A DNA stretch of 32,000 bases, from the NCBI GenBank assembly GCA_963806635.1, contig CAWDZA010000002.1, forward strand, positions 68,048-100,047. The letters are read 5' to 3'. Position numbers and translations under genes: made by a program. Shown piece after piece: positions 1 through 30,862 of the stretch (the stretch's first letter is position 1; each line of letters starts with the position of its first letter). This stretch comes from an uncultured Chloroflexia bacterium (GTDB lineage: Bacteria > Chloroflexota > Anaerolineae > Anaerolineales > Anaerolineaceae). A model generated the notes under the pieces. It was not told where the DNA came from and ran no database searches. It was given only the letters and a program-made list of their open reading frames with translations.

Positions 1-2274
1 CCGCGGAACTTGCCGAAAAATATCTGGCTCCGCTTTCCGCCTTCATCGACCTGATGCTCCCGCCCGGTCTCAGCCAGCATGCGGATACGCTCTATTCGCG
101 TAATCCCGGCGTGGATGCGACAGTCGTGAACCCCACGCAAAAGCGCATCCTTGGGGAGATCGAAAAACGCGGACCTCTGCGTGGCAGGCAGCTGGATGCC
201 GCCATTCCTCGGGTGGATTGGCGCCCCTCCGCCGCCGCCCTGGTGAAGGCTGGAGTACTCATCACCCAGCCGGTGCTGCCCCCGCCCGCTGTGCGCCCCA
301 AGGTGGTGCGCACGGCGCAGCTTTCCCGCCCGTTGGAGCAGGCACACCAGATGGTGGAGGATGAGCCCAGGATGGCCGCAGCAGTTCGCGCACGCAGGCT
401 CTCAGCGCTGGAATTCCTGTCCCGCGAGGCAGTCCCGGTGAGCGTTTCCTGGGTGTATGCCGCGAGCGGCACGAAGCTGGCAGATCTGGAAAAACTGGCG
501 GAACTTGGGCTGGTGCAGCTCGGAGAAACCGAGATCTGGCGTGATCCGCTGCGCGATTTGGTGGCTCCTGTCTTTGATCCTCCGGTGCTCACCCGCGCCC
601 AGGAGGAAGCCCTGGAAAAGACCGACCGCGGATTGGAAAACGCCTCCCGCGGAGGCACCCCCAAACCCGCTCTTCTGCACGGCGTGACCGGCTCGGGTAA
701 AACTGAGATCTATCTCAAAGCCATTGAGCATACCCTGGCAAAGGGCAAACAGGCGATCGTGCTTGTACCCGAGATCGCCCTCACGCCGCAAACGGTGCGC
801 CGGCTGCTCGCCCGCTTTCCGGGCAGGGTGGGGCTGATCCATTCCCGGCTCTCCCCCGGCGAGCGTTTCGATACCTGGCGGCGCGCGCGGGATGGCGCCC
901 TGGATGTGATCCTGGGTCCGCGCAGCGCGCTTTTCACCCCCCTGCCCAACCTCGGGTTGATCGTGGTGGACGAATGCCACGAAGGCTCCTACTACCAGGA
1001 TGATCTCCCTCCCTTTTACCACGCGGTGGATGCCGCCCTGGCACTTGCCCGTCTCACGAAATCCGTGATCATTCTGGGGTCAGCCACCCCCTCTGTGGAG
1101 ATGGTGCAGCAGGCCAACCTGGAAGGTTGGGAGCGCCTGGAACTACCCAATCGCCTGCTTGCTCACCGGGCGGCGATCACCGGGGAATTGCAGGCGATGA
1201 AGAAAGAACTGCCCGCTCTCGCTTACGATCAGGACGCTATCACGCTGCCAATGCCCCCGGTCTCCATCATTGATATGCGTACGGAACTGAAGGAAGGCAA
1301 CCGTTCGGTCCTCAGCCGCGCGCTGCAGGTGGAGCTTGGCGCGGTGCTGGAGCGGGGTGAACAGGCTATCCTCTTCCTCAACCGGCGCGGGTCGGCAACC
1401 TATGTCTTCTGCCGGGAGTGCGGCGCACCATCTGCGTTGCCCGCGCTGCGAGCGGCCACTCACCTGGCATGAAGATACCGCCAGGCTGACCTGCCATTCC
1501 TGCGGATACACCCGCCAGATGCCGCAGAGCTGCCCCGTGTGCGGCAGCCGGGAGATCCGCCAGTATGGCACCGGAACACAGGCGGTGGAGAAATTGGTTC
1601 AGGAACTCTTTCCAACCGCGCGCACCCTGCGCTGGGATTGGGAAACAACCCGGCAGAAGGGCGCGAACGAGATGATCCTTTCGCACTTTGCCAACCACCG
1701 CGCCGATATCCTGATCGGCACCCAACTGCTGGCCAAGGGGTTGGATCTGCCGCTGGTGACATTGGTGGGGGTGATCCTGGCGGATGTGGGTCTGAACTTT
1801 CCGGATTTCCGCGCCGCCGAACGCACGTTTCAACTGCTCACCCAGGTGGCCGGGCGCGCGGGGCGCAGCCCGCTGGGCGGCAGGGTGATCTTCCAGACCT
1901 TCCAGCCGGAGAATTACGCCATCCAATCCGCCGCGCTGCACGATTTCAACGGCTTTTTTCACCAGGAACTGGGCTTCCGCCGGGACCTGGGGTATCCGCC
2001 ATTTACCAACCTTGTAAAGGTGGAATTTCGCGAGCTGGATGCGGGAAAGGCTGAGAAAAACGCGCGGAATTTCGCCGCGCAGGCGCGGGTGTGGATCGAG
2101 GAGGGCGGCTTCAAGGCGACCGAGCTGATCGGCCCAGTTCCGTGTTTTTTCTCGAAGGAGGGCGGCTATTACCGCTGGCAGGTGATCCTGAAAGGCCCCA
2201 ACCCGGCAGGAATCCTCCGGGGCAAGCCGCTGGGGGATGCCAGGGTGGTTGTGGATCCGCCCAGCCTGTTGTAG
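1..2274 (+). CDS. priA: Primosomal protein N' (replication restart helicase PriA), 5' end outside window, disrupted by a frameshift near 1425-1440
   Basis: ORF 54..1472 (frame open from window start) has Walker A HGVTGSGKTEIYL, VVDECHEGSYYQ, LGSATPSVE, FLNRRGSATYVFCREC. ORF 1336..2274 continues with HHLRCPRCERPLTWHEDTARLTCHSCGY...SCPVCGS and GTQAVEKLVQELFP. Together they form one PriA with zinc-binding Cys clusters. Confidence 0.93.
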
Positions 2275-2405: not shown

Positions 2406-4915
2406 TTATGCCGGCTCCGCCACCTTCTCGCGCTTGACCTTCACCTTTTTCTTCTTTGTCAGGATGATCTCCCCGGCTTTATCCAGGTCGATCCAGATGA
2501 TATCCCCATCCACGAACTCGCCGGCCAGCAGTTTATCCGAAAGGGCATCCTCGATCTTCTGCTGGATCACGCGCCGCAGCGGACGCGCGCCCATTTCGGG
2601 GTCGTAACCCTCATCCGCCAGCTTATTCAAGAGCCTCATCGGTGGCTTCCAGGGTCAGGTTGTGCTCAGCCAGGCGGTCGGAAACCTTCTTCAATTCCAG
2701 GGTCACGATCTCGCGGATCTGCTCGCGATTGAGGGCATGGAAGACGATGACCGAATCCAGGCGGTTGAGGAACTCGGGGCGGAAGACCTTTTTGAGCGAA
2801 TCCAGCAGGGTCTTGCGCATGTCGTCGTACTTCTGCTGCTCCTCGATGGCTTCATCGCGGGTGAGCTGAAAGCCGAGCGAGCCCTGCCTGCGGATCTCCT
2901 CCGCGCCGATGTTGGTGGTCATCACGATGATCGCGTTGCGGAAATCCACCTTGCGCCCCTTGGCATCCGAAAGATGCCCCTCCTCCATGATCTGCAGGAG
3001 CATGTTGTGCGCCTCGGGGTGGGCTTTCTCCACCTCGTCGAACACGACGATGGAATAGGGCTTGCGGCGGATGGCTTCGGTGAGCTGACCGGCTTCATCA
3101 TAGCCGACATAGCCAGGAGGCGCGCCCACCAGGCGGCTGACGGTGTGACGCTCCATGAACTCGGACATATCCAGCTGGATCATCGCGTCTTCGCTGCCGA
3201 AGAGGAAACGGGCCAGGGTCTTGGTCAGCTCGGTCTTGCCCACGCCGGTGGGACCCAGGAAGATGAAGGAGCCGATGGGGCGCTTGGGATCTTTGAGCCC
3301 GGCGCGCCCGCGCCGCACGGCTTTGGAGATGGCCTGGATGGCTTCCTCCTGCCCGACGATGGAGGTGCGCAGCTCATCTTCCATGTGCAGCAGGCGCTCG
3401 GATTCGGCGGTGGCCATCTGCATCACGGGCACGCCGGTCCACATGGAAACCACCTCGGCGATATCGTCGGCGGTGACCACGGGGCTGGTGGAGCGTTCCC
3501 AGGTGGTGCGCATTTTTTCCAGCTGAGCGTTGATGCTGCTTTCCCGGGTCAGCAGTGCCTGGGCTTCATCCAGCCGGCCATCTTCCACCGCGGTGGTGTG
3601 GCTCTGGCGCACTTCGCGCAGCTGGGTCATCAGGTCCTTCTGGGCTTTGGCCTGCGGGGATTTATACATGCGCACCCGCGAGGAGGATTCATCGATCAGG
3701 TCGATGGCCTTATCCGGCAGGAAGCGGTCGTTGACGTAGCGGGCGGAAAGGCGCGCGGCGGCTTCGAGGGCTGCATCGGAGATCACCAGGCGGTGGTGCT
3801 CTTCGTAGGGGGTGCGGATGCCGCGCAGGATCTGGATGGTCTCCTCCACGGTGGGTTCATTGACCATGATGGGCTGGAAGCGGCGCTCGAGGGCGGCGTC
3901 GCTTTCGATATTCTTGCGGTATTCATCGATGGTGGTGGCGCCGATCACCTGCAGCTCGCCGCGGGAAAGGGCGGGCTTGAGGATGTTGGCGGCATCCACC
4001 GAGGAACCGGCAGAACCGGCACCCACCAGCATGTGGACTTCATCGATGAAGAGGATGGACTTGGTGGCTTTGAGCTCGTCGATCACGCGCTTGAGGCGCT
4101 CTTCGAACTGACCGCGGTACATGGTGCCCGCCACCAGCGAGCCGACATCCAATTGAAGGACGCGCTTATTCGACGAGCGGCCCGGGGACATCCCCGGCGA
4201 TGATGCGCTGGGCGAGCCCTTCGATGATGGCGGTCTTGCCCACGCCGGGTTCGCCGATGAGGGCGGGGTTATTTTTGGTGCGGCGGGCCAGCACCTGGAT
4301 GACGCGCTCGATCTCCATCTGGCGCCCGATCACGGGGTCCAGCTTGCCTTCCTCGGCCTTGCCGGTCAGATCCGTGGCAAGCTGATCGACCAGGGGGGTT
4401 TTATCCTTCTTGCCGGATTCCGGTTTCTGCTGGGCGGTCTTATCCCCGCTGGCGGTGGTGGCACTGCCTGCCAGGCTGTTTTCGTTGAGCACGCGGTAGG
4501 TCTGGCGCCGGATCTGCTCCTGGGTGACGCCCAGCTTGCGCAGCACTTCCTGCCCGGCATCCTTGGTGGAATGGGTGAGGGCCAGCAGGAGGTGCTCGGT
4601 GCTGATGTATTGATTGCCCATGCGGCGGGCTTCCTCGATGGCCAGCTCCAGCAGCTCCTGCGTGCCGGGGGAAAGATCGATCTTGCCCTCGCGCTGCTCG
4701 CCATATCCGCCGATGCGCTCGACCATCTCCCGCACGCGGTCGGTCTCCAGTCCCAGGTCGCGCAGGACGCGCGAGGCGATGCCTTCCTCCTCCTCGATCA
4801 AACCCATCAGCACATGCTCTGTGCCGATGAAAGGCTGGCGAAAGCTTTCAGCAGCCTGGTGGGCCAGGCTGAGGACGTGGCGGGCGCGTTGGGTGAAGCG
4901 TTCCATTCCGGGCAA
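2406..4915 (-). CDS. clpC: ATP-dependent Clp protease ATP-binding subunit ClpC, disrupted by two frameshifts (~4180 and ~2635)
   Basis: ORFs 4166..4915, 2623..4191 and 2406..2639 join in order: Clp_N repeats ([19 protein letters not shown]), [10 protein letters not shown] Walker [15 protein letters not shown]-like middle region, [45 protein letters not shown]. Confidence 0.95.
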
Positions 4916-15831: not shown

Positions 15832-18139
15832 TCACTTTCCCCCTGCCAGGAACATCGTTTTTCCGTCCGTGGTCACCACCAACTGCCCGTTGTCCGCAAC
15901 TTGTATCCAGGAATTGTCTGGCGCGGGCTGCACAGTGTCGTACCAGAGGATCCCCAGGGCAGGCAACGAGTTCCACTCCGCTGGAGGAGAAGCCACCAGG
16001 TCGTTTTTTCCCAGAAGGACGAGTGAAGGAGGGGAGCGGCGCGCACTTTCTTTTAATTCCTGCGGAGAAAAACCACCCGGCAGGAGCAGAGAGAAATTTT
16101 CGTAATCGAATACCAGCGCGGTACCGCTTTCGCCGGAGGCGAGCACCCTCAGGACCAGTCCGGGTTCGAGCTGATAGGTCTGTCCTGCTTCCAGGACGCT
16201 GCTCTTTGCGCCATCCTGCCGCAGGGTTGATTCCAGGCTGCGGGTGGCAGAATTGGCCGGGACAGCCCCGCCCCACAGGACGTTGTTCACCTGCACCTGC
16301 TCGGCGAGGAACGGCAAGCCGGCAAGGGGGCTGGCCTGGGCGTCAGTCAGGATCAACCCGTCCAGCCGGCGCTCGAAGGGGGAGAGCCGCGCATCCACCC
16401 GGGCGGTCAGCTCGCGCCCGTTGGCGGCGCCATTGATCAGGTAGGCCTGCCCACGCGGGGTGAGGATCAGGACCGCATGGCTGTTATCCAACCCTGGCAG
16501 CAGGATATGCAACCTGCCATCCGGCCGGGAGGCAGCTTCCATCCAGGCGGCCAGGGCAGCAATGCCGCAGATGGTGAGCAGAATGGCCGGTTTTGCCTGC
16601 GCTGGGAACCGCTTTGCGAGGAGATAGAGCCCTGCAGCCAGCGCCAGCAGCACAACGATCCACACGAAACCAGACTCGGATACTTTGAACGCCCCACCAA
16701 GATCGGAAAACGCTTCCACGATGCTTATCGTGTAGGTCAGCGGAACCAGGGCGAACCATCCCAGCAGGGAGCCCAGCGGCAAATAGATCATTCCACCAAC
16801 CATCGCCGCTGCACCCAGCATCATCACCAGCGGCTGGGCAGGAAGGATCAGTGGGTTGGCGAGGATGGCGCTCAGCGAGATCTGGTGGAAGTGCCAGGCC
16901 ATCAGCGGCAGGGTGGCGATCTGGGCGGCAAGCGTCAGCAGAACGTATTCTCCCACCGGCACTGCGATCCCACGCGCCTTCCCCGGAGGCATCCGTTTTT
17001 CCAGCCAGGCAGAGAACCAGTGAAGCAGACGGGTTACCCAGGACGATCAGCCCCAGGGTGGCGGTGAACGAAAGCTGAAAGCTGACATCCCAGAGCAGGT
17101 AGGGATCGAAGAGGCACATTACCGCGGCGGTGAGGACCAGGGTGTTCAGCCCTGATCCGCGCCGCCCGATCTGCATGCCCAGGATGGCCATGGCGCCCAT
17201 AATGGCTGCCCTCATCACCGCCGGCTCCATGCCTACCAGCAGGGAGTAGAGAAAGACCGCGATGATCGAGAATATCGCTGCTTTCCAGCGCGAGGTAAAG
17301 AGCCGCAGCGCCCAGAATACGAAAGCTGAGACGATGGCGATATTGAATCCGGAGATGGCGATGATGTGGGCGGTACCGGTCTGCTGGAAAGCGTTGGTGA
17401 GGTCATCGGGGAGATCTTGATCCAAACCGAGCAGGATACCATTCAGCAGCGCTGCTTGCGGCTGGGGCAGGATCTGGTTGATGACTGTGTAGCCCCGCAG
17501 ACGGAGAGAATATAGAGCGACGATGAGCGGGTTACCGTGCCCGTGTGACAATACTTCGATTTTGGGAAAGGCGACCAGGGTCTGGATGCCCTGGCGGGCG
17601 AGATATTCGCGGTAGGAGAAGGTCTCATCCTCAGGCGGGGTCTGCGGCTCTCCGGTGATCCTGAGCATGTCGCCATACTTGACCTCCGTTCCGGGCCGGG
17701 TTTGCACCTGGATCCTGCCGGAAGAGGGGGCGATTCCGGCTCCTTCCGACACGACATCGGCTTTGAATGAGGTTGTTTTCCCATTCGTTGTTGGCAGACT
17801 GGTGACGACTGCCGAGAAAGTTATCCCGCCGCGGTCATTTTGAGAAGCGATATGGTCAGGAGAAAATGAAGTAGTTTGGACAGGGTATCGCCATGCGCCC
17901 AGGGCTAGCGCGGCCAATAGATACTGCGAAGCGGAAGAGGGACTGATTCTGCGCCAGGATTGGAGCAGGTGCACACGGGCGGTGAAGCGCTTTTCCAGCA
18001 CCGCGAGAAGCGCACTGAGGATGAAAATTACAAATAGAACAGGTTTGGGAATGGTGCTGACGCTGCCCAGCCAGATGCCTGCGAGGAATGCTGTGGAGAG
18101 CCAGAGCAGGGGCATGGGGATATTATAAATAAGGCTCAA
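15832..18139 (-). CDS. comEC: ComEC/Rec2-family DNA uptake protein, one frameshift near ~17020; C-terminal MBL-like domain degenerate
   Basis: ORF 16484..18139: LLNGILLGLDQDLPDDLTNAFQQTGTAHIIAISGFNIAI, GMEPAVMRAAIMG, DPYLLWDVSFQLSFTATLGL. ORF 15832..16992 continues the membrane domain and then the MBL-like region. Confidence 0.9.
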
Positions 18140-19784: not shown

Positions 19785-20507
19785 TTAAAGATTCAACAGG
19801 ACATAAAAGCATGTGAACCAGGTTGCGAGAACTCCGGGAACTTGCTGTGAGGGCGGGGTGGTGAAACTTTGGCGGATGGGCACCAACCCTTTCGAAGGAC
19901 TCGGAATTTTGCTTTCATGAGTGGTGCCATCCCAGCGAATAACCACATCTTCCAGGCGGGAATCCCCGGTAAAAAAGAGCTCAGCCAGGCTGCCAGTTTT
20001 GCCCATCCAACGCAATGCGCCTGCACCGGGCCCCTGAAATAGCATGCCTTTACCCGAGGTCTGCCAATTGCCTTCCAATTGGAACTGTTTGAACCCCACA
20101 TCTCCTAGGCTGGTTGTGAACCAGTTCAGGGTGATCTCGCGGCCTGCAATTTCACCCCCACTTGAAGCGGGGATGGAAATTACCAGGGTGTGAGTTTCGA
20201 GAAGGCGAATCGGGGTTGGTGGCTTTGCCACAAGGACGAGCACATATCCACAAAGCGCAGAGATTAGCAGGAGCAGGCTGGAGAGCCATCGCGGCTGAAG
20301 ACGGAAGCGGGGCAGCAGAAAATGCCCCACCACAAGGTAATTAACCGGACACAGGACCACCCATAGAATAACTGCAAAAATCAATTCCCGCTTGCTGACC
20401 GCAGGGGTCTGGATGAAGTAGAGGTACGCGCTAAAGGTTATCGCCAGGCTGATCAACGCGGCCAGGATGCCCAGACCGATTCGCTCTGGAGATAGACGAA
20501 TTTTCAT
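19785..20507 (-). CDS. Short membrane protein, paralogue of the N-terminal third of the upstream 720-aa protein
   Basis: TSLGDVGFKQFQLEGNWQTSGKG...LRWMGKTGSLAELFF versus TSLRDIGFGEFLQKGDWQRTKTG...LTWSGRSGETATLVF in the neighbour; the ORF ends shortly after that domain. Confidence 0.7.
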   Translation of the reverse strand: MKIRLSPERIGLGILAALISLAITFSAYLYFIQTPAVSKRELIFAVILWVVLCPVNYLVVGHFLLPRFRLQPRWLSSLLLLISALCGYVLVLVAKPPTPIRLLETHTLVISIPASSGGEIAGREITLNWFTTSLGDVGFKQFQLEGNWQTSGKGMLFQGPGAGALRWMGKTGSLAELFFTGDSRLEDVVIRWDGTTHESKIPSPSKGLVPIRQSFTTPPSQQVPGVLATWFTCFYVLLNL

Positions 20508-22666
20508 TTTTCTGCCCCGGTCTCCTTCCCAGAGTGGTTGTGACCAAAATGGGCAGCAGGGTCGCGGGGAAAAGTGAAAGAGAGGATCAATAACCCCAGG
20601 CTGAATAGACCCACGAGATAAACCCCATATTGATAGCGGAAATCACGCGAGACGTTGATGAATAGCATCACCGCCGATTGCACAGCGGCAGGCAGGAAAA
20701 ATAGAAGAAATCGCGGCTGCCTGGCGCGGTATGCCATCATAGAAGAACAGAACAACCCCAGGTATAAGAATAACGCAGGAGTGAAGAACAGCACGTCCCA
20801 GGGTTTCCGAGAGGCGAAGTCCTTAAGCTTCGCCAGCGGGACGATCCAGGCAGAGAGCAAGCTGTTCTCTTTCAACCCTAGATCATTTGGCTCGATCCAG
20901 GAAACAGTTGCAGCTTCTGTTTTTTCCTGGTTGAGCATACAGTGGTTGGGCACCTCCCACACGAGCGAACTGACGCATACCAGGTGCTGAAGCTCCACTC
21001 CCGGCTCTTTCACAGCCAGATCTGCGAACAAACTCTGTATATCGGCAGCTTTTTCTGTGAAACGCGGCTCGGAGTAGGCTGGCTGGGTCCAGATGGGGAT
21101 ATTGGTACAGCAATCGTAGCTCCATTGATCCAGAGGCAGTATTCCGGATGCCAGGTCTGATTCGGCTGGCGTGAGCGGGCTGCCGGTGGCGATGTGCGCA
21201 GCGATGTGATGGATGAAAACCTGCTGTTTGAAGCCTGCGTTGCGATCCACCTTTAGAAGAGTATAGATCGGTCCCTGAATTAGCAGCCACGTACCTGCAA
21301 TCACACCCACACTGAGCAACACTCTTTTCCATTGATTTCGATAAACGATAGCCAGGACGATCAGGCTCAGAATTGGGACTGGAAGCCCGTTCAACCGGAA
21401 AAGGCTGATGCCCAGACCAACGAGTGTCAGCCAGAGCCAGGAAAAACGCTCACCCAGCCAGGTACCCTTGCTGAAGATGGCTTTCAGGATCATCAGCGAG
21501 AGCAGAAGAAGGCAGATGGAATAGGGGATATCCTTCCAGAGAGAGACAACCATATTCCCATTTACTGGTGAGAGGGCAAATACGAGCGCCAGCCCCCAGC
21601 CAGCCCAGCGCGGCAATCCCTGATCTTCCAGGAGATGGATGCCCCAGGCGACTGTCAGGGCGAGCGCAATGATTTGGAATACGATCACGACCGCAGGAGA
21701 AAACCATAGCCGGGTGAGCAGGATTACCAACAGGGTGTGAACCACCGGGAGCGCGTCGTTGAACTGCCCGCTGATCACCTGCCCCCATTGGCGGATCGAA
21801 TCGGGGGTCATGACGGCTGGGAAAAAGGTAAGCAAGTAGATACCCCACACGGCGATCATGGGCAGGGCATAAAGCAGCCAGAAGCCTTTCTTTGGTTGAA
21901 GTACTGGAGCGGGTTTGATCTGGACACCAGCGAGGAAAATGGTCAGCACCAGGAACAGGAAACCGGCAGTGAGAACAGCCATTAAATTGCTGAAGAGTGT
22001 GCTCATCCAGCTTCCCGGGAACCGGGAGGATGCGATCACCGGTGCGCCAGGCGATTCTGCGGGGTTCAGCGCAGCCAGGTTCCCATCCCAGCCTGCCTGG
22101 ACTTCCGCAATGCCTGGCGAATTGGAAAAAACGAGCGTGGCTGTTTCCCCCGAACGGCCGCTCCAGGTAAGCGAAGCGGGTTCCCCGCCTGTGTGGGTGA
22201 ACCCTGTTTTGGTTCGTTGCCAATCTCCCTTTTGCAAAAATTCTCCGAAACCGATATCGCGCAGGGAGGTCTTCGCGTACTCGAGCGTGACAGCCCGATC
22301 CGCGCTTCCCCCTGGGAGATTTATTTGTAAATGGTGAACCGGCAGCAGGAGAATCGCCTGGGGGGGATGGGTGACCAGGGCGAAAAGGATGCCGACGCCT
22401 GCAGATAAGAGGATCCAATTACGCCTGGCTTTGGGTGAGTATCTGAGGAGACGGGGGTGCAAAAATCGCGTGAGCAAGACATAAACAAGCGGTATTAATA
22501 AGAACCAAAGGAGCAGGGCAAAGGCATATTCGCGCCTGGCGAAAAGGGGAGTTTGAAAAGCCCAAAGATAACCGCTGATTGCCATGCAAAAACCGAGGCT
22601 TACAGCGATCCCCCAATAAAGGAGGTTGTGTTTGTTTTGTAAAGGGATTTGTGCGGATAAATTCAT
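20504..22666 (-). CDS. Large multi-TM protein, resembles DUF6020/GT-C-like family
   Basis: 720 aa; LTFFPAVMTPDSIRQWGQVISGQFNDALPVVHTLLVILLTRLW, ALSPVNGNMVVSLWKDIPYS. Confidence 0.65.
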   Translation of the reverse strand: MNLSAQIPLQNKHNLLYWGIAVSLGFCMAISGYLWAFQTPLFARREYAFALLLWFLLIPLVYVLLTRFLHPRLLRYSPKARRNWILLSAGVGILFALVTHPPQAILLLPVHHLQINLPGGSADRAVTLEYAKTSLRDIGFGEFLQKGDWQRTKTGFTHTGGEPASLTWSGRSGETATLVFSNSPGIAEVQAGWDGNLAALNPAESPGAPVIASSRFPGSWMSTLFSNLMAVLTAGFLFLVLTIFLAGVQIKPAPVLQPKKGFWLLYALPMIAVWGIYLLTFFPAVMTPDSIRQWGQVISGQFNDALPVVHTLLVILLTRLWFSPAVVIVFQIIALALTVAWGIHLLEDQGLPRWAGWGLALVFALSPVNGNMVVSLWKDIPYSICLLLLSLMILKAIFSKGTWLGERFSWLWLTLVGLGISLFRLNGLPVPILSLIVLAIVYRNQWKRVLLSVGVIAGTWLLIQGPIYTLLKVDRNAGFKQQVFIHHIAAHIATGSPLTPAESDLASGILPLDQWSYDCCTNIPIWTQPAYSEPRFTEKAADIQSLFADLAVKEPGVELQHLVCVSSLVWEVPNHCMLNQEKTEAATVSWIEPNDLGLKENSLLSAWIVPLAKLKDFASRKPWDVLFFTPALFLYLGLFCSSMMAYRARQPRFLLFFLPAAVQSAVMLFINVSRDFRYQYGVYLVGLFSLGLLILSFTFPRDPAAHFGHNHSGKETGAEK

Positions 22667-22697
22667 TCAGATTATGTCGGGACTATGTTTGCGAGGT

Positions 22698-24784
22698 TCA
22701 AGGGTTTCCGGTCAACCGTGAGATCATATTTCTGAACTCTGACTTTCCGGCAGATTCAGGGGTGTTTATCTCAATGAATTCCCAGGTGCTTTCCATTAAC
22801 TTAAAATTCGGAGTGTCATCCCTGGCGATACGTAACTTCACAGCCCTATTCATAAGCTCGGTTGCTTTTTGCCACTCCCCGCCCAGGGCGTACGCCAGGA
22901 TGAAGGGCATAAGTTCGGTATCCAGCGAGGTGATAAACCCCTGCCGGAAGATCGCCTTATCTCCCAGCTCCCTCACAGACTGCCAGTCCTGGGTTTGACG
23001 GGCAAGATCGGCCTTCTCGTAATAATAACACCAGCCTCTTTCCGGTCCGGCTCCCAAGTGGATGGCTGACGGGTCGATCGGGTTCTCGGCGTTCCCAGGG
23101 AGGATCGGTTTTAGGCTGGCGAATGGAAGCCAATTCTCCGCCCTGGAGTCCATCGATGGAAATTCCGCCGAGAAATCGGGGTTATACACCTGGGGGCAGT
23201 TCTTCCCGTTGTAATTTAAAAAGATCGTTTTCGATAAGTCGGGTTTGAAATGTGCTGCGATCAAACCCATATCGTCCCTGCCTCTGGATTGATAATCCTC
23301 CAATTGCGACGCGAGCATGATCAGGTAGGGGAAATTGTTGGAGGTGAGATCGGGCGCATACAAGCCAGTTGAAAATATACGACCAGGCAGTGGCCCCATC
23401 CCCGGTGGGCATGTCGTTGGTAAGGATCATGGTGCCCGGTTCCAGACTGGGGATACGGTAGGTAAGATTCCAGAAGAAATTGTTGCGCCTCACGTCCACC
23501 GCCCGTAGCTCGTTGGAGGAAATGAACTGGAGCCCGGCGCTGAGTCCAACCACCGCGCTCAGCACAAGGATCTGTATCCAATAGCGCTTCAGCAATACCT
23601 CGATCAAAAAGGCGACCCACAGGCAGGAGACAAGCAGGAAGGGCAAAAGGTAGCGGGTTTCATACCCGCCCACGCCAGCCGCCAGCCCGACGACAATAAA
23701 TGGGATGCCCCCCAGCAGCCAGGGTACTACGCTCAATCCCATCAGTTGAATTGCAAGTGTCTTGTTCTTCTGATCCGCGGGTGGTTTTGGCAGGTGGTAG
23801 GCGCGCAGCACCAGGAAGGTGATCCCCCCCGTGATGAGCACAACCGATAAATAGACAATCGAGGAAAGCGAGCCCCAATTAATGCGTTCCCAGGTAACCG
23901 AAACGATCTGGGTCCAGGCGCGTACCATCCCCATCCAGAAATACTAATGCGGTCTGCCTGATAAGCAGGAGAATCCCCGCGAACCAATTCTCCCGTAAGG
24001 TGGAAAGCAGGCTGAGTGAGTGGTTGTAGGTCTGGTAGGGGAAAAGGAAAACCCGCCAATATAGTACTGCGCAAAAAGCGATAAAAAATGGCAGGAAATG
24101 AAGAGTGGTTTTTCGAAGCTTCTGTTTGACTGTCAGATCGGTCTCGGAGAGCACAATCCAAATCACAAACGGACGCATCAGTTCCATAAAGAGGAAGTAT
24201 TCCATCGCCAGCATGTTGTAAATGCTGAGCCCGAGCGCCAGGAGATAAAACAGCCAGAATCGTTTCGGATGTCGCAGAGAAAGAACCGTGAAGGTGAGCG
24301 AGAGCAGGAAGATCGCCAGGATGATGTTGCGGTGACCCGTGGTGAGCGCCACGCCGTGCGAGAGATACCCCGGGAAAACCGCGATCAGGATGCTGGCAAA
24401 CACCGCCAGGCGCACGCGCCTTGGCCACAGGTTTTTTACCAACCACCAGCCAGAGAGACTGGTGAGCCAGGGAGCCAGCACCGCAAAGAGCTGCCAGCGC
24501 CAGGGATCGGGTCCCAGCAGGGGCAACAGCACCTGATACAGCGGTGCCAGAAAGGGGCGGTTGGTAACGTGATAATAATTGACCCCCCACGCACCCAGCT
24601 TCTGGTAGATCCAGAGCATGATCCAATCGTCAGCGTAGAACCCGAGCCAGGGGAGCAGAACGCCATAGGCAAGGAAACAAAGCAGCAGGAGGAAAAAGGG
24701 ATGGAACAGCGGATGAGTTGTTACCCTGGTGTACCATCTCCGATTTTCGCCGGCGGTTTCCACCGTTGTGATTTGCTCTGGCAT
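22698..24784 (-). CDS. GT-C-like multi-TM glycosyltransferase (reconstructed from three ORFs; frameshifts ~23930 and ~23385)
   Basis: ORF 23879..24784 (FYADDWIMLWIYQKLGAWGVNYYHVTNRPFLAPLYQVLLPLLGPDPWRWQL), ORF 23182..23934 (TM region plus LTNDMPTGDGATAWSYIFNW), ORF 22698..23399 (LYAPDLTSNNFPYLI... soluble tail). Confidence 0.7.
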
Positions 24785-24955
24785 GCAGCTCCTGAGAACC
24801 TATCGATTACGATTAATTTCCTGACCTAAAACCTTTCCGGATTCCCGTTGGAATTTTACCTTATTCGGGGGCAAGCGCCTTCTTTAGAGCGTCGAATAAA
24901 ATAAGGTATCATTCTAGATGAAGAGTTCCTTATCTCTCAAACCTGGGTCACGTTT

Positions 24956-26224
24956 ATGACCGAATCTGTCCATCCGGAAACTAAAACCAAATCCTCTGCG
25001 CTCGATCCGTTCTGGCTCGTCTTAGGCGCTTACCTTTTTACTTTCATCTGGTTCTTCATCCGCAGCGTTTTCTTCAACCCCAACCAGGTGATGATGGTTT
25101 TTGAGACCGTTCGGCGACTGGACCCGATCGGCTACGACCTGATGATGATGCTCAGCCATGCCTCCGCCTGGCTAAATCACACGATCTCTCCATACGCTTC
25201 GTTCAATAATTTCCCGCCTCTCGCCACCCTGCTCTTCACCCCGCTCACCATGGTACCCATCCAAAGAGCATATGCGATCATCACCTTCATCACTCTGGCG
25301 AGCTTCTTCTGGATCGGTTTCCTCTTTCCTTATTTTTCCAACAAACCCCGCGAGGTGAAGCCGGTACTTGTGCTTGTGTTCATCACCGCGCTTACATCGT
25401 ATGGAATGCAATTCGAGATCGAACGCGGGCAGTTCTATTCCATCGCCTTCGCGCTGGCTTTCGCGGGCATCTACCTCTTCCACCGCTACCCGAAGCTCTC
25501 CTGGCTGGCGTATATCCTCTTCACGCTGGCAATTCAGATCAAGATATTCCCCGCCTTCCTGATCTTCCTATTCATCCGGGATTGGCGGGACTGGCGCGGA
25601 AACCTGATCCGCATTCTTGGCCTGGGGGCGGCGAACTTTGCGCTGTTCTTCGTGCTGGGTTGGACCCGGTTCCTGGAATTTGTGAACATCCTGGTGGCGA
25701 TGGTGGATGACTCGGGCATTTGGGTGGGCAATCTCTCGGTAAAGTCCTTTGCCTACTACCAAATGCCGATCCTATTGAAACGCATCAATTTGGGTGATTT
25801 AAACGCTGCCGGCATGGTTGAAGGAGTTTTGATGGCGCTGGTGTTGATCCTGCTGATGTTGGGGATCTTCCAGGCGTATCGGCGCAACCGGTGGGGGATC
25901 GACCCTTATTTGCTCTTCATTTGCACCTGCGCCGCGATGGTCATTCCACAGATCAGCCACGATTACAAACTTCCCGTTCTGGCTGGTCCCGCTGCCATAC
26001 TGCTCATGACCCTCAAACTTTCAAAAAAGGACTCCAAAGCACGAATCATCCTCATGTCGGCGGGGATTGCGGTGTTTTCTCTGGCGTATTTTTCCACCCA
26101 GTATTCCTATGTGATGAAATCGCCCCTAATTGCGAACAACTTCCTGGCCGTTTTCCTAATGATGGTTCTGGGGGTTATTTTCGCCTTCACCGAGCAGGCG
26201 GATGGAAACGATCCGGCAGGTTAA
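24956..26224 (+). CDS. Multi-TM protein, DUF2029/GT87-like mannosyltransferase family
   Basis: 422 aa; NNFPPLATLLFTPLTMVP, IERGQFYSIAFALAFAGIYLF, IKIFPAFLIFLFIRDWR. Confidence 0.7.
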   Translation: MTESVHPETKTKSSALDPFWLVLGAYLFTFIWFFIRSVFFNPNQVMMVFETVRRLDPIGYDLMMMLSHASAWLNHTISPYASFNNFPPLATLLFTPLTMVPIQRAYAIITFITLASFFWIGFLFPYFSNKPREVKPVLVLVFITALTSYGMQFEIERGQFYSIAFALAFAGIYLFHRYPKLSWLAYILFTLAIQIKIFPAFLIFLFIRDWRDWRGNLIRILGLGAANFALFFVLGWTRFLEFVNILVAMVDDSGIWVGNLSVKSFAYYQMPILLKRINLGDLNAAGMVEGVLMALVLILLMLGIFQAYRRNRWGIDPYLLFICTCAAMVIPQISHDYKLPVLAGPAAILLMTLKLSKKDSKARIILMSAGIAVFSLAYFSTQYSYVMKSPLIANNFLAVFLMMVLGVIFAFTEQADGNDPAG

Positions 26225-26233
26225 GTCCAGCCT

Positions 26234-27664
26234 TTACACGAACTTGATCTTGCCCATGGCGAAGAAGACCATTTTGAGCAGCATCCAGCCATGCTTCCAG
26301 CGCTGAATATTGGTCGTCCCATACACCCGTTCCTGGTAGCGGATGGGCAGATCCACGATCTTCAACCCCAGTTTGTCAGCTCCGAGGAGCAAATCAAAAT
26401 CACCGAAGGGATCGAACTCCCCAAAATAACCCCGGTTTGCCGCGATCCGTTCGTAGTCTGCTTTCCAAAGCACCTTCGTGCCGCAAAGGGTATCCTTAAT
26501 CGGTTGACCCAACGTCCAGCGGAAAACCAGGCTGAAGGCTTTGTTGCCCAGCAGGTTGAGGGGGCGCATGGCGCCGCCTTCCATCGGATAAACCAGGCGC
26601 ACCCCATTGATAAAATCGCCTTTTCCGCTCGCGATGGCTTCATAGAAAGCCGGTAGATCTTCCGGTGCCACAGTCAGGTCTGCATCCAGTATCATCAGAA
26701 TATCGCCCGAAGCGCGCGCGAACCCCTCCCGGACAGCGTCCCCCTTCCCCGTTCCCGTTTGCCTGAAAAGGGATGCCTTGCATACCGGGTTCGAGAGGAT
26801 CGCATCTTCGATCGCTTTGTAAGTATCATCCTTTGAGTGACCTTCCACGAAGATCAGCTCTGTTCCGCCCCCCATTTCCGGCACTCTTCGGAAAATATCC
26901 GCGATGTTTCCGGCTTCATTCCGGGCGGGGACGATCACGCTGACCCTGGGAAGTGGTTTGCGAGCGGATGGCTGGGGCAATGGTCTGGCCATGATGATAT
27001 TGGTGAGAGCAAAGTAATGAAAGGGCCAGATCTTGACCAGGAATTTATTGAAAAATGAATTGAGCAGCGGGATTGGTAAGGGAAAAAGGATCTCGTGCCA
27101 GTGGCGCAGAGATTCGAAACCTTCGAGGGAAAGCAGGTTGCGGATATCGTCCGGGGTCAGCCAGTTCTGGGGTAAATTGGGCCTGGCCAGACCCACGACG
27201 GCAGCAAGGGAAAGGATGGGGGACCACATCCGGCTGTAGAAATTGATGATAATGCGGGTTTTGGGGTTGCAGCAGCCCCGCAAGGCGCCAAGTACCTGCT
27301 GCACGTTCCACAGGTCGTTGACCAGGTCCGAAAGGATAACGTAATCAAAAGTACCATCCCCTTCGAACTGGTGCGCGTCCATTTCCAGGAATTCCAGCTC
27401 GGGGTGATTTTGCCGGGCGATGGCGATCATTTCCGGGCTAAAATCCACGCCAAGCCCGCGCGCAGGCTTGAGGCTGGCGAGAAGATCGCCTCCCCCGCAG
27501 CCGAGCTCCAGGACAGACGCACCTTCGGGAATGAGGAAGCGGAGGAATTCCGCCAGACGGCGGTGATAGGCTTTTCCAGCCGACCAGCGCTTTGTATCGC
27601 GGGCGATGTTGTTCCAGTGCTCCACCCGCCCGCGGGTGTAAAGTTCCTGTTTTGCCTGGGTCAC
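26234..27664 (-). CDS. Bifunctional class I SAM-dependent methyltransferase / GT2 glycosyltransferase fusion
   Basis: N-terminal half: SVLELGCGGGDLLASLKPARGLGVDFSPEMI. C-terminal half: RVSVIVPARNEAGNIADIF, ELIFVEGHSKDDT, GKGDAVREGFARASGDILMILDADLTVAPEDLP. One uninterrupted 476-aa ORF. Confidence 0.88.
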   Translation of the reverse strand: MTQAKQELYTRGRVEHWNNIARDTKRWSAGKAYHRRLAEFLRFLIPEGASVLELGCGGGDLLASLKPARGLGVDFSPEMIAIARQNHPELEFLEMDAHQFEGDGTFDYVILSDLVNDLWNVQQVLGALRGCCNPKTRIIINFYSRMWSPILSLAAVVGLARPNLPQNWLTPDDIRNLLSLEGFESLRHWHEILFPLPIPLLNSFFNKFLVKIWPFHYFALTNIIMARPLPQPSARKPLPRVSVIVPARNEAGNIADIFRRVPEMGGGTELIFVEGHSKDDTYKAIEDAILSNPVCKASLFRQTGTGKGDAVREGFARASGDILMILDADLTVAPEDLPAFYEAIASGKGDFINGVRLVYPMEGGAMRPLNLLGNKAFSLVFRWTLGQPIKDTLCGTKVLWKADYERIAANRGYFGEFDPFGDFDLLLGADKLGLKIVDLPIRYQERVYGTTNIQRWKHGWMLLKMVFFAMGKIKFV

Positions 27665-28430: not shown

Positions 28431-28467
28431 GAAAACAGCGTGCTCGAGGTATCCTCGAGCACGCTGT
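28431..28467 (-). terminator. Strong intrinsic terminator downstream of the J/thioredoxin/PPIase gene
   Basis: ACAGCGTGCTCGAGG(28435-28449)-TAT-CCTCGAGCACGCTGT(28453-28467): perfect 15-bp stem, followed on the minus strand by TTTTC. Confidence 0.8.
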
Positions 28468-28502: not shown

Positions 28503-30101
28503 TCATTTCTCCTGGATGGTCACCGAAAGGATCGTATCCGCGGTGGGCAGAGTGCCGCCCTGGGAAGGATCGCGTTTGGTGAGCGCGTTGACCACGTCCA
28601 TACCCTCCACCACCCGGCCAAAGATGGTGTAATTGCCATCCAGGTTGGGCTGTGGGGCGAGGGTAATAAAGAACTGCGAACCATTCGTTCCGGAACCTGA
28701 ATTAGCCATGCCCAGAACGCCGGCGGCGTCAAACTTGAGATCAGGGCTGATCTCATCCCCGAACTGGTAGCCCGGTCCGCCCAGGCCCGTGCCGGTGGGG
28801 TCGCCCGTCTGGGCAACGAAGCCATCCAGCACACGGTGGAAGGGCACGCCATCGAACCATTTATTTTGGGCCAGGAATACCAGGCTGTTGACGGTGAGCG
28901 GGGCCTGCTTCGCAAAAAGCTCCACCACGATATCACCCTTGGTGGTCTGGATGGTGGCAGTATATTGCTTATTGGGGTCGACCACCATCGGCGGGCATTC
29001 CTTATATGACTTCTGCTCCAGTTTCCAAATATTCAGAACGGCATCCAGGTTTTCCTTGCTCAGTCCGATGGAATCGTTTGGATCCACGTTCACGGCAAAG
29101 ACAAGTTTGCCGCCCATTTCAATGAAGACGGAAGGCGTGGCGTTGACGCCCACATTCCCCGCCGCGGTGCGGAACTCTTCCACTTTCTTGACCATGGCAT
29201 CGCTTGTGAGGTCTTTGGTGAACTGCTCTGCATCCAGTCCAATTTCACCTGCTTTTCCAATGACCCAGGTCTGAAAGTCCTCGGGGGTCATCGCAGCCCA
29301 GGTCTGCCAGGTATCCGGGTTGAAGAGCACGTCGTGCATCTCCCAGAATTTACCTTGCAGGGAGGCTGCTTCGGCCGCCTGGAGGGCGATGGCGGATTTA
29401 TCGTGGCTGAGAGGGAAGTGCCGGTAAACGAAGCGGACGTCGTTGGGGTTGTCTTTGATGAATTGCTCCATCACGGGAGCAAGCTGGGCGCAGTACGGTC
29501 AGGTAAAGTCTGAATATTCGATGATGGTCATCACCGCATCTGCAGGACCTTTAACATAGTCCGTGCTGCTGACGGGCGGCAGTTTGGCAGCGTACTCCGT
29601 TTTCTCGGGTGGGAAGATCGAGGTGGCTGGCAGGCATTCACCAGGTTTGGCACCCACGATCTCCGGCACGGCCGTGGCAGCGGAGGGGGTTAATTCATTT
29701 CCGGCTGACTCCACCTGGGTGGTGCTCGCGCTGTTCTGGCTGCCGATGGGCAGGAATCTGCCCGCCAGCCCCGCGCCAACGATCAGCAGCAGGACAACAA
29801 CTCCGCCGAGCACATACAGCCAGGTGCGGTTCTTTGGTTTTTGCGCCGTTCCGGGAACTTCGTCAGGCGTTTTTACGCTCTTATCCGCTGCATAGCGGTC
29901 GTAATCCGCCCGGCGGGTTTTATCGGAAAGCACCTGGTAGGCTTCCTCGATGGCGGCAAAGTCCTTTTCCGCCTTGTCTTTCTGGGCGGGGTCCTCGAAT
30001 TTATCGGGGTGGAATGCCTGAAGGAGGAACTGGTAGCGCTCCTCAATTTCCTTTTTGCTCGCGTTCTTTGGGACACCAATAATATCGTAATAATCTTTCA
30101 T
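28503..30101 (-). CDS. Candidate selenoprotein: DnaJ-like J-domain, TM helix, thioredoxin/DsbA-like domain with U-P-Y-C motif (TGA at 29499-29501), cyclophilin-type peptidyl-prolyl isomerase
   Basis: ORFs 29499..30188 and 28503..29474 share one frame (30188 and 29474 are both 2 mod 3) and are split by a single TGA. Sequence: [15 protein letters not shown]...[10 protein letters not shown] (HPD); [21 protein letters not shown] (TM); [11 protein letters not shown]-[TGA][31 protein letters not shown] (Trx/DsbA-like); [20 protein letters not shown]...[25 protein letters not shown]...[13 protein letters not shown] (cyclophilin). Start is taken as the ATG at 30101. Confidence 0.75.
29463..29482 (-). 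promoter_or_regulatory. Putative bacterial SECIS-like hairpin downstream of the in-frame TGA
   Basis: mRNA: UGA-(CCGUACUGCGCCCAGC, 16 nt)-UUGCUCC-CGUGAU-GGAGCAA. Perfect 7-bp stem, 6-nt loop with G at loop position 2; the loop begins 23 nt after the UGA. Confidence 0.5.
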
Positions 30102-30105
30102 ATAT

Positions 30106-30735
30106 CTACCTCTCTTGGATTGCCGGCAGGCGGGAATCGACCGCCGCACGAATTTGGGATTGTACCACACTGCTTTCGTGGGCGGCATCGATGACCACCC
30201 AGCGCTGAGGCGCTTCCGCGGCCAGCTTCAAGTAACCGGCGCGCACCCGCTGGTGCAGCTCCAGCTGGTAATCGTCCATACGGTTCCATTCACCTCCGCC
30301 GCTTTTGCGGCGTTTCAAGCCCTGCTCGGCGTCTATATCCAACAACAGGGTCAGATCGGGAACGAGGCCCCCTGTGGCGAAATTCAGTATCTGGCGCAGC
30401 TGATCCAGGTCGTTGCCATGCCCGTAGCCCTGGTAAGCCAGGGTGGAATCGGCGTAGCGGTCGGAGATGACCACCTCGCCTTTTTCCAGATGAGGGCGAA
30501 TCACTTCGGCCACAAGTTGGGCGCGGGCAGAGCAGAAGAGCAGGGTTTCGGTGCGCGGATCCATGCCCTGGTTGCGCATGTTCATCAGGATCTCCCGCAC
30601 CTGGTCGCTGATCTCGGTACCCCCCGGTTCGCGGGTGGTAAGGACGGTGTACCCCTGCGAGCGTAGATGATCTGCCAGGGGCAGCATCTGGCTGGTCTTT
30701 CCGCTTCCATCGGGGCCTTCAAGAGTAATGAACAT
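30106..30735 (-). CDS. tmk: Thymidylate kinase
   Basis: MFITLEGPDGSGKTSQ, TREPGGTEISDQVREIL, DRYADSTLAYQGYG; the ORF extends to 30828 but the likely start is MFITLEG. Confidence 0.95.
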   Translation of the reverse strand: MFITLEGPDGSGKTSQMLPLADHLRSQGYTVLTTREPGGTEISDQVREILMNMRNQGMDPRTETLLFCSARAQLVAEVIRPHLEKGEVVISDRYADSTLAYQGYGHGNDLDQLRQILNFATGGLVPDLTLLLDIDAEQGLKRRKSGGGEWNRMDDYQLELHQRVRAGYLKLAAEAPQRWVVIDAAHESSVVQSQIRAAVDSRLPAIQER

Positions 30736-30862
30736 ATCTATTTTTCGTTTCGCAGAGGCGCAGGGGAGGGAAAAAGCGTGCAGGCGAAGCATGGAAATGC
30801 AAGGTAGAGTACCATTCTGCTTCGGCAATCGTGTTTTAATCTTTGCATCTCTACGTTAACCA

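Follow-up and report, generated by a model that had tools for sequence, protein, structure and literature searches.

A predicted selenocysteine-containing DsbA–cyclophilin protein with a J-domain membrane anchor from an Anaerolineae bacterium

Bacillus subtilis BdbD (PDB entry 3eu3), the DsbA of Corynebacterium diphtheriae (4pwo/4pwp) and the DsbA of Mycobacterium tuberculosis (Rv2969c) are membrane-tethered proteins outside the cytoplasm; a helical insertion in the thioredoxin fold, a motif of the CxxC type and a T-cisPro loop are common to them. This fold, motif and loop recur in the product of the gene studied here, which is likewise predicted to be membrane-tethered and extracytoplasmic. 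The gene lies on the minus strand at positions 28503–30101 of a 32-kb stretch of DNA from an uncultured Chloroflexia bacterium (contig CAWDZA010000002.1; the whole stretch of 32,000 nucleotides is referred to as the window), and the sequence similarity of its product to these proteins is in the range of E 1e-8 to 1e-11. When compared with BdbD and the actinobacterial DsbA proteins, the window protein differs in having a predicted selenocysteine (Sec) as the first residue of the motif, a C-terminal cyclophilin domain and an extra pair of conserved cysteines, and in being anchored by a J-domain and a transmembrane (TM) helix, together referred to as J+TM, instead of by a lipid or by a TM helix alone. 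The explanation that accounts best for these features, with a probability of about 0.7, is that the gene encodes a Sec-containing, J-anchored DsbA–cyclophilin foldase of an Anaerolineae bacterium, which is co-transcribed with the tmk gene.

DsbA-like selenoproteins with a UxxC motif were defined in 2005 from nine Sargasso Sea sequences (Zhang, Fomenko and Gladyshev, PMC1088965), and were counted in 41 organisms in 2016 (PMC5029168). A 2026 review (PMC13188914) has them under the name 'DsbA-like protein form 1', and the words cyclophilin, peptidyl-prolyl, Chloroflexi and Anaerolinea are absent from it. This family resembles the window protein in being of the PF01323 type, in having widespread Cys homologues and in having a selenocysteine insertion sequence (SECIS) with a G in the apical loop (PMC1088965). 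It was defined, however, on stand-alone COG2761 proteins, for which Deltaproteobacteria, Clostridia and marine samples were the main sources (PMC1088965), and the 2026 review describes neither the fusion context nor the J+TM anchor of the window protein (PMC13188914).

For the peptidyl-prolyl isomerase (PPIase) domain, the best solved relative is PpiA of M. tuberculosis (1w74), which shares the cyclophilin fold and the catalytic residues, with 48% identity to the homologue model described below. Lipoprotein PPIases acting outside the membrane are otherwise known from the streptococcal SlrA/PpiA-type cyclophilins and from PrsA of B. subtilis, and these, like BdbD, offer an analogy. When compared with SlrA, PrsA and PpiA, the window PPIase is fused to an oxidoreductase and is not a lipoprotein.

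Membrane-associated J-proteins have also been described. In Escherichia coli, DjlA and DjlB/DjlC have a J-domain in the cytoplasm that a single TM helix tethers to the inner membrane, and they are thought to localise DnaK/HscC activity; DjlA ties DnaK to envelope signalling, and its connection with Rcs is discussed in PMC11709261. In DjlA, however, the TM helix is N-terminal, the J-domain is C-terminal and there is no enzymatic ectodomain, whereas in the window protein the TM helix is followed by a predicted catalytic ectodomain of ~415 aa. ERdj5/DNAJC10 combines a J-domain and thioredoxin-like redox domains in one chain, and the J-domain of Sec63 recruits Hsp70 at the translocon. In ERdj5 and Sec63 the J-domain is luminal, on the same side as Hsp70 and the redox domains, whereas the J-domain and the redox and PPIase domains of the window protein would be on opposite sides of the membrane. 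Likewise, in J-domain protein disulfide isomerases of the ERdj5 type these domains share one compartment with no TM helix between them, whereas in the window protein the TM helix of aa 94–117 intervenes. DjlA/DjlC, ERdj5 and Sec63 are regarded as functional analogies, with no homology beyond the individual domains.

In the searchable full-text literature, which has most subscription journals outside its scope, neither a DsbA–cyclophilin fusion nor a chimera of J-domain, TM helix and foldase was found to be described. An earlier sequence-only reading of this DNA had called the architecture unusual. This holds for the J+TM anchor, which is rare, but not for the rest, as the DsbA–cyclophilin fusion is abundant, UxxC DsbA proteins are known and J+TM modules are common. 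It had also named, as a possible refutation, a large number of characterised proteins that share this domain order; those found in public data (P0085, P0117 and at least nine clusters of split Sec forms) are all uncharacterised predictions from metagenomes, most of them wrongly split. The parts and the principles are all known and no known principle is overturned; it is the combination of J-domain, TM helix, DsbA and cyclophilin, and its recurrent evolution, that is undescribed.

The joined gene and its in-frame UGA codon

The four-part joined product of ~532 aa, as proposed in the sequence-only reading, is found as one frame of 532 codons, in which the order of the parts is J-domain, TM helix, DsbA-like (UPYC) domain and cyclophilin domain. 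Translation of 28503–30101 on the minus strand reveals one internal stop, the TGA of codon 201 at 29499–29501, in the context IIEYSDFT-[TGA]-PYCAQLAP. The Pfam run, done on the joined sequence with U written as C, gives matches above the curated cut-offs for DnaJ, Thioredoxin_4/DSBA and Pro_isomerase, in this order. The features of the gene are as follows.

28503–30101 (minus strand): complete coding sequence of the predicted selenoprotein, 532 codons plus stop (translation, Pfam, Cys homologues P0085 and P0117)
29898–30095 (minus strand): J-domain (DnaJ, PF00226), aa 3–68 (Pfam, E 5e-18)
30003–30011 (minus strand): HPD motif, aa 31–33, H31-P32-D33 (direct sequence read)
29751–29822 (minus strand): single TM helix, aa 94–117 (sequence and hydrophobicity)
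29634–29636 (minus strand): conserved Cys156 (GEC), 5' of the DsbA domain (alignment column)
29097–29564 (minus strand): DsbA-like/Thioredoxin_4 domain, aa 180–335 (Pfam)
29499–29501 (minus strand): predicted selenocysteine 201, in-frame UGA, first residue of U-P-Y-C (TGA/TGY alternation)
29490–29492 (minus strand): Cys204, resolving cysteine of UPYC (sequence and alignment)
29463–29482 (minus strand): SECIS-like hairpin UUGCUCC-CGUGAU-GGAGCAA (folding and covariation)
28995–28997 (minus strand): conserved Cys369 (KEC-PP), within the DsbA–cyclophilin linker (alignment column)
28521–28955 (minus strand): cyclophilin-type PPIase (Pro_isomerase, PF00160), aa 383–527 (Pfam, E 2.5e-42)

At least 163 related loci, drawn from collections of genomes and metagenomes, were compared, together with five more from exact-protein look-ups and the window; 53 of these loci, the window included, encode the DsbA–cyclophilin fusion and are the basis of all counts out of 53 given here. 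The codon homologous to 29499–29501 is TGA in 23/53 fusion loci and TGT/TGC in the other 30/53, and the motifs are UPYC, UPGC and UPAC in the Sec forms and CPYC, CPAC and CPGC in the Cys forms. The protein conservation runs through the TGA in the relatives L081/L082 (89% identity) and L083 (61%), and conservation as PYCAQLAPV(M) extends over the nine codons that follow the TGA, the Met at which the gene caller starts the second 'gene' included.

The SECIS-like hairpin has a stem of 7 bp and starts 16 nt after the UGA (+19 to +39), and its apical loop holds a G and a U. For bacterial SECIS elements, the spacing criterion reportedly given by Zhang and Gladyshev in 2005 is 16–37 nt from the UGA to the loop. 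In the gap-free alignment of 18 Sec-type loci, 98.4% of the cells are paired and compensatory double changes occur in 4/7 pairs; none of 500 shuffles reaches the observed values, and when the partner is slid by 1–3 columns only 24–56% of the cells are paired. In the commonest switch, the 5' arm changes from GCU to GCG, which is synonymous for Ala, and the 3' arm from GAG to GCG, which replaces Glu by Ala; the synonymous change matches the non-synonymous one, and protein constraint alone hardly explains this switch. The hairpin is missing from most Cys-type homologues.

The alternation of the codons, the protein conservation across the TGA, the covarying hairpin and the ordinary use of TGA as a stop in the window are four independent lines that support the reading of the UGA at codon 201 as selenocysteine, which would be recoded via the downstream SECIS hairpin and inserted by SelB·Sec-tRNA. 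That the J-domain, TM helix, DsbA and cyclophilin parts belong to one gene and one predicted chain is confirmed by the homologues, because P0085 and P0117 carry DnaJ, DSBA and Pro_isomerase in a single open reading frame (ORF) with Cys at this position. A reassigned code, in which UGA would be read as Trp or Gly, was considered and rejected because TGA terminates four other Pfam-supported genes of the window as well as the J/DsbA/cyclophilin gene itself (TGA at 28503–28505).

Sec and Cys forms interleave many times in a rough tree. In the Cys-type locus L007 (TGC, CPAC), of the Anaerolineales metagenome-assembled genome JALUWE010000007.1, the hairpin is kept as CUUGCGCC-CGUGCU-GGCGCAG, with its spacing from the codon unchanged, and this looks like the fossil of a recent conversion of Sec into Cys. 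Such a natural series of Sec and Cys forms, with frequent switches and at least one apparent fossil SECIS, is a good system for studying the benefit of Sec in a disulfide catalyst. Outside the Chloroflexota, the loci L056, L064 and L137 have TGA at the first position of the CxxC motif (UPFC) in DsbA-like genes without a cyclophilin part; L137 encodes a multi-DsbA-domain protein with Sec in the first domain only.

The predicted DsbA–cyclophilin ectodomain

In the redox domain, Thioredoxin_4 (PF13462) matches aa 180–328 (E 2.5e-19; 70.5 bits, cut-off 23.2) and DSBA (PF01323) matches aa 192–335 (E 8.8e-16; 58.7 bits, cut-off 25.6), and the Pro of the cis-Pro loop (T-P, aa 322–323) is invariant in an alignment of 82 family members. 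The solved relatives of this domain are 3gyk, C. diphtheriae DsbA, BdbD and some ScsC-type proteins. The C-terminal cyclophilin-type PPIase, also seen in the sequence-only reading, is matched by Pro_isomerase with 145.3 bits. In a pairwise alignment with the human CypA sequence, the counterparts of Arg55, Phe60, Gln63, Asn102, Gln111 and Phe113 are all present, and Trp121 and His126 are replaced by Asn and Tyr, respectively; replacements of these two residues are common in bacterial cyclophilins. The AlphaFold2 model of the Cys homologue P0117 has a mean predicted local distance difference test score of 84.5, with values above 90 for all three domains and of 94–97 for the J-domain, and the helical insert of the DsbA-like domain is visible in it. 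In a Foldseek search of the PDB only single-domain cyclophilin matches were obtained, and no solved multi-domain analogue.

The additional cysteines that flank the redox domain (GEC and KEC), pointed out previously, correspond to two strongly conserved columns: in the 82-sequence alignment, C156 and C369 are each Cys in at least 90% of the members, as are the lipobox Cys and the CxxC pair. Cys156 and Cys369 bracket the DsbA domain and are probably partners in a structural disulfide, which would hold the two catalytic domains in a fixed arrangement. A disordered linker lies between the signal-anchor helix and Cys156.

The protein search gave 7,749 matches at E <= 1e-10 among 8,000 candidates scored, cyclophilin-only proteins included, and most of the best 120 listed matches carry both DsbA and cyclophilin domains. 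Among the matches listed from the genome and metagenome contig scans, none is closer than 60% identity. The named sources include Longilinea, Bellilinea, Thermanaerothrix, Anaerolineaceae, Caldilineaceae, Ardenticatenia and Thermoflexales, all of which are Anaerolineae (Chloroflexota), and the database labels read 'peptidylprolyl isomerase' or 'cyclophilin family PPIase/protein-disulfide isomerase'. A typical member has 405–445 aa and an N-terminal lipoprotein signal peptide (L-x-[AG]-C). By its sequence, the DsbA–cyclophilin part belongs to an abundant, automatically annotated and unstudied Anaerolineae family of predicted lipoproteins. An abundant group of proteins of ~590–650 aa (P0017, P0019–P0021, P0024 and others), from the same taxa, scores near the fusions; it has cyclophilin-only Pfam matches, with ~55–63% identity over the cyclophilin third, and its N-terminal regions are without domain assignment.

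The lipobox L-x-[AG]-C is absent from the window protein, which has J+TM in its place and is thus not a lipoprotein. Its TM helix occupies the position at which 51/53 of the homologous loci have the lipoprotein signal peptide, and the basic residues KPKNRT precede this helix on the N-terminal side. The DsbA–cyclophilin part is predicted to be outside the cell because at least 90% of the homologues carry the lipobox Cys instead of J+TM, and the basic residues before the TM helix point to the same placement. This is also in agreement with the extracytoplasmic location of the DsbA/thioredoxin-like domain suggested in the sequence-only reading. These properties fit a type-II (N-in/C-out) membrane protein with the J-domain inside and the DsbA and cyclophilin domains outside, and from the sequence comparisons an extracytoplasmic foldase role appears well supported.

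In the mechanism proposed here, the TM helix would act as an N-in/C-out signal anchor and the ~415-aa ectodomain would be exported. The U-x-x-C centre of this enzyme, which is similar to BdbD and actinobacterial DsbA, would swap disulfides or selenenylsulfides with unfolded exported proteins, and the cyclophilin would speed the prolyl isomerisation of the same clients. The ectodomain would act on proteins leaving the Sec translocon in a bacterium without a periplasmic chaperone pool. Selenocysteine has a low pKa and is a good nucleophile and a good leaving group; as the attacking or leaving-group residue of the motif it would allow faster exchange.

It is also conceivable that the redox domain is a reductase or isomerase, or a handler of metals or metalloids (as in ScsC-like copper tolerance, cytochrome maturation or selenium/arsenic chemistry), with a cyclophilin that has narrow clients; this reading is doubtful but carries real weight. 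Among the solved structures related to this domain are ScsC and DsbA-like proteins of copper resistance (4gxz, 6nen, 6mhh), Sec lowers the redox potential of the motif, as established in selenol chemistry, and the oxidising DsbB/VKOR pathway is less obvious in anaerobes, to which most Anaerolineae belong; no DsbB/VKOR gene is found within the window. The closest relatives with structures, however, are of the oxidase type (3gyk, C. diphtheriae DsbA and BdbD), the spectrum of CPYC, CPAC and CPGC motifs resembles that of DsbA oxidases, and the fusion to a general PPIase together with the house-keeping synteny (tmk, plsC) suggests a general foldase. The net action of the redox centre may be that of an oxidase, an isomerase or a reductase.

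The J-domain anchor and its distribution

The N-terminal J-domain with its HPD motif and the single TM helix, both of which had been predicted from the sequence, are clearly present; the DnaJ match scores 65.4 bits (cut-off 27.8) and covers model positions 1–63 of 63. Among the 53 listed fusion loci, J+TM is found instead of a lipoprotein signal only in the window and in L081 (89%; L082 is a fragment of L081). A search with the N-terminal 200 aa gives nine 90%-identity clusters (P0121–P0129), which are 62–97% identical and have ~49 member sequences; their lengths are 139–206 aa, most being of ~196–206 aa and ending exactly at the TGA, and four of them are labelled 'curved DNA-binding protein CbpA'. 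These clusters pair with nine 'PPIase' clusters (P0001–P0009, 321–322 aa), the two halves adjoining each other on the contigs, and the window is a member of this small clade of J-anchored Sec forms. Further J-anchored members, with Cys and in a single ORF, are P0085 (546 aa, CPYC) and P0117 (577 aa, CATC). A neighbour-joining tree built from the ectodomains has each of the three J-types at a separate place among the lipoprotein types.

The exchange of anchors is best seen when comparing P0117 with the lipoprotein P0285. The two are 87% identical from SPFEPIAGDTPM to the C-terminus, whereas the N-terminal ~200 aa of P0117, with a J-domain, then a long helix rich in K/E/R/Q and then a TM helix, have a lipoprotein signal of 24 aa as their counterpart in P0285, and 18/18 of the closest relatives of P0117 are without a J-domain. 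Judged from this alignment, P0117 is a clear-cut example of an N-terminal module that was swapped cleanly. It is known from one sequence, on a contig of 3.2 kb, and may be an assembly chimera. No stand-alone J-domain gene, as a possible fusion donor, is present within the fetched flanks of the lipoprotein-type loci. The replacement of the lipoprotein signal by J+TM in the DsbA–cyclophilin family appears to be a rare variant, and the tree is indicative of its recurrent evolution.

In an exhaustive search of representative sequences, 87 of the 153 nearest J-domain relatives (P0138–P0284) have an N-terminal J-domain (with the HPD near residue 31), a TM helix and a variable C-terminal part. The C-terminal parts include FGE-sulfatase (P0200, P0205), Trypsin_2 with TPR (P0182), RCC1 repeats (P0268), SH3_3 and DUF4352. 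Because it is attached to such varied domains, J+TM is a mobile N-terminal module that is not unique to this family, and the proteins with J+TM and an ectodomain seem to make up a wide class of membrane J-proteins that is apparently unstudied.

Within the clade of the window, the identity is 71–100% for the J-domain and 71–100% for the TM helix, and it is 28–72% and 21–62% for the two linkers (P0121, 97% identical overall, being excluded); the HPD motif is kept in 9/12 aligned J-type sequences, the window counted. This suggests that there is selection on the J-domain and on the TM helix. The TM helix (29751–29822, minus strand) is as conserved as the J-domain and far above the linkers. A helix that served only as an anchor would not usually be so conserved, and this hints at a specific intramembrane partner, which might be Sec/YidC or a VKOR/DsbB-like oxidase. 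In the most likely reading, the J-domain would recruit DnaK to the membrane beside the foldase; by bringing DnaK·ATP there it would couple the cytoplasmic holding of precursors, or stress sensing, to folding outside. A J-domain wired through the membrane to a foldase with two activities, and repeatedly acquired, would mean that Hsp70 may be coupled spatially to secretion-linked folding in bacteria without a periplasm, and the protein is an attractive object for experiments on J-proteins localised at membranes.

Alternatively, the J-domain could be an inert, fast-folding cytoplasmic plug or topogenic module which, with the signal-anchor helix, merely replaces the lipoprotein anchor, the protein working in the same way as its lipoprotein relatives. 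In that case J+TM could be useful, for example, where lipoprotein processing limits. The lipobox serves the same job in 51/53 relatives, the HPD motif is degenerate in some members, and J+TM is found on many unrelated C-terminal domains, as for a generic anchor. This reading is a serious rival but the less likely one: the J-domain is conserved while the neighbouring linkers drift to 28–50%, the HPD is intact in most of the J-type sequences, a plain TM helix would do as an anchor, and J+TM appears to have been acquired at three separate places of the family tree.

An elaboration of the DnaK-recruiting foldase that is rather improbable in its full extent is a trans-membrane relay, in which the J-domain would load DnaK on secretory precursors or the Sec machinery at the site where the ectodomain receives the emerging chain, so that Hsp70 holding and oxidative and prolyl folding would be coupled in one polypeptide. 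The TM helix would then dock to SecYEG/YidC or a VKOR-type partner, and the repeated capture of J+TM would reflect selection for this coupling.

Several observations weigh against the overall explanation as a Sec-containing, J-anchored foldase. In the 32-kb window no tRNA, and hence no tRNA-Sec (selC), is found by ARAGORN, and among 30 ORFs of the window compared with Pfam none is selA, selB or selD; because no Sec machinery is present within the window, the ability to decode Sec is deduced from the conserved UGA and the hairpin only. No matching SECIS model is present in Rfam, and positions 29300–29600 give only noise at E <= 10 (mir-361, snoRNAs). By Pfam, a DsbB/VKOR partner is also absent from these 30 ORFs. 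The HPD motif is HPE in the close relatives P0124 and P0125 and NTE in P0085, so that stimulation of Hsp70 is not kept throughout the J-type members; against a function of the J-domain in particular, the great majority of the DsbA–cyclophilin family uses a lipid anchor. The occurrence of the J-types at three places is indicative only, because the neighbour-joining tree is without support values. The sequence quality is imperfect, as apparent frameshifts are seen in three other genes of the window; the TGA of codon 201 is replicated in independent metagenomes.

Gene calls, sequence quality and genomic setting

It is very improbable that the TGA of codon 201 is a true stop, in which case the J-TM protein would have 200 aa and a truncated, cytoplasmic DsbA–cyclophilin of 323 aa would start separately at GTG 29474. 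Termination is the default meaning of TGA, which ends other genes of the window, and the gene calls split every Sec-type member in this way (P0001–P0009 and P0121–P0129; 'CbpA' and 'cyclophilin family PPIase'). The downstream piece, however, would be without the β1 strand, the active-site residue and an export signal, the 8 codons from the TGA to the called start are conserved at the protein level, as PYCAQLAPV, in all Sec loci, the homologues carry Cys at exactly the TGA codon in an uninterrupted ORF, and the covarying hairpin is at a fixed distance from the UGA. When read as a selenoprotein, a single gene is systematically split by the annotation into 'CbpA' and 'PPIase', and ~40% of the fetched DsbA–cyclophilin loci (23/53) would be mis-called Sec forms, which hides a large group of selenoproteins in the Anaerolineae, organisms that abound in sediments, digesters and wastewater. 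That the in-frame TGA stems from an error of sequencing, or from a mutation that recently turned the gene into a pseudogene, has a negligible probability: priA, the clpC-like gene and comEC of the window have apparent frameshifts, but the replication of the same TGA across metagenomes, in independent samples and assemblies at 61–99% protein identity and in 22 other fetched loci, refutes this reading.

The splits in these three genes are probably frameshifts due to assembly indels. Overlapping ORFs in different frames are found for priA (54–1472 and 1336–2274, plus strand), for a ClpC/ClpB-like ATPase (2623–4191 and 4166–4915, minus strand), in which the D2-small domain is truncated, and for comEC (15832–16992 and 16484–18139, minus strand). 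A similar fragmentation is seen in the related 350-kb contig L164, in which tmk has 136 aa and the cyclophilin is in two pieces.

Two further features lie at the ends of the J/DsbA/cyclophilin gene.

30109–30114 (minus strand): Shine-Dalgarno-like GAGAGG, 7 nt 5' of the ATG at 30101 (sequence read)
28435–28467 (minus strand): intrinsic-terminator-like hairpin with a 15-bp stem, then UUUUCAU, 36 nt past the stop codon

The ATG at 30101 is the start because the homologous N-terminal halves begin with MKDYY and because of the GAGAGG at 30109–30114; the upstream ATG at 30188 was considered as a start and rejected, as the split N-terminal homologues all begin with MKDYY. The GAGAGG adjoins the stop codon (30106–30108) of tmk, the thymidylate kinase gene at 30106–30828 identified by Pfam, and this suggests translational coupling of the two genes. 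The hairpin at 28435–28467 is revealed by folding (-34.3 kcal/mol, z-score -4.8, with 0/200 shuffles equally stable); it was not flagged by a simple terminator scan. With the Shine-Dalgarno-like sequence at the tmk stop and the terminator-like hairpin downstream, tmk and the J/DsbA/cyclophilin gene look like the last genes of a single transcription unit.

The order SpoIIIAA/R3H ATPase, tmk, the gene, (further genes) and a PlsC-type acyltransferase is shared between the J-type loci (the window, L165, L164 and L167) and the lipoprotein-type locus L083. Two genes downstream, at 26234–27664 (minus strand), there is a fusion of a S-adenosylmethionine-dependent methyltransferase and a GT2 glycosyltransferase (476 aa). 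At 19785–24784 (minus strand) there is a run of ORFs of 233–720 aa without Pfam match, and between this run and the fusion gene are GT87, DUF6056 and GT2 genes. The region 19785–27664 looks like a neighbourhood for the biosynthesis of envelope glycans or lipids.

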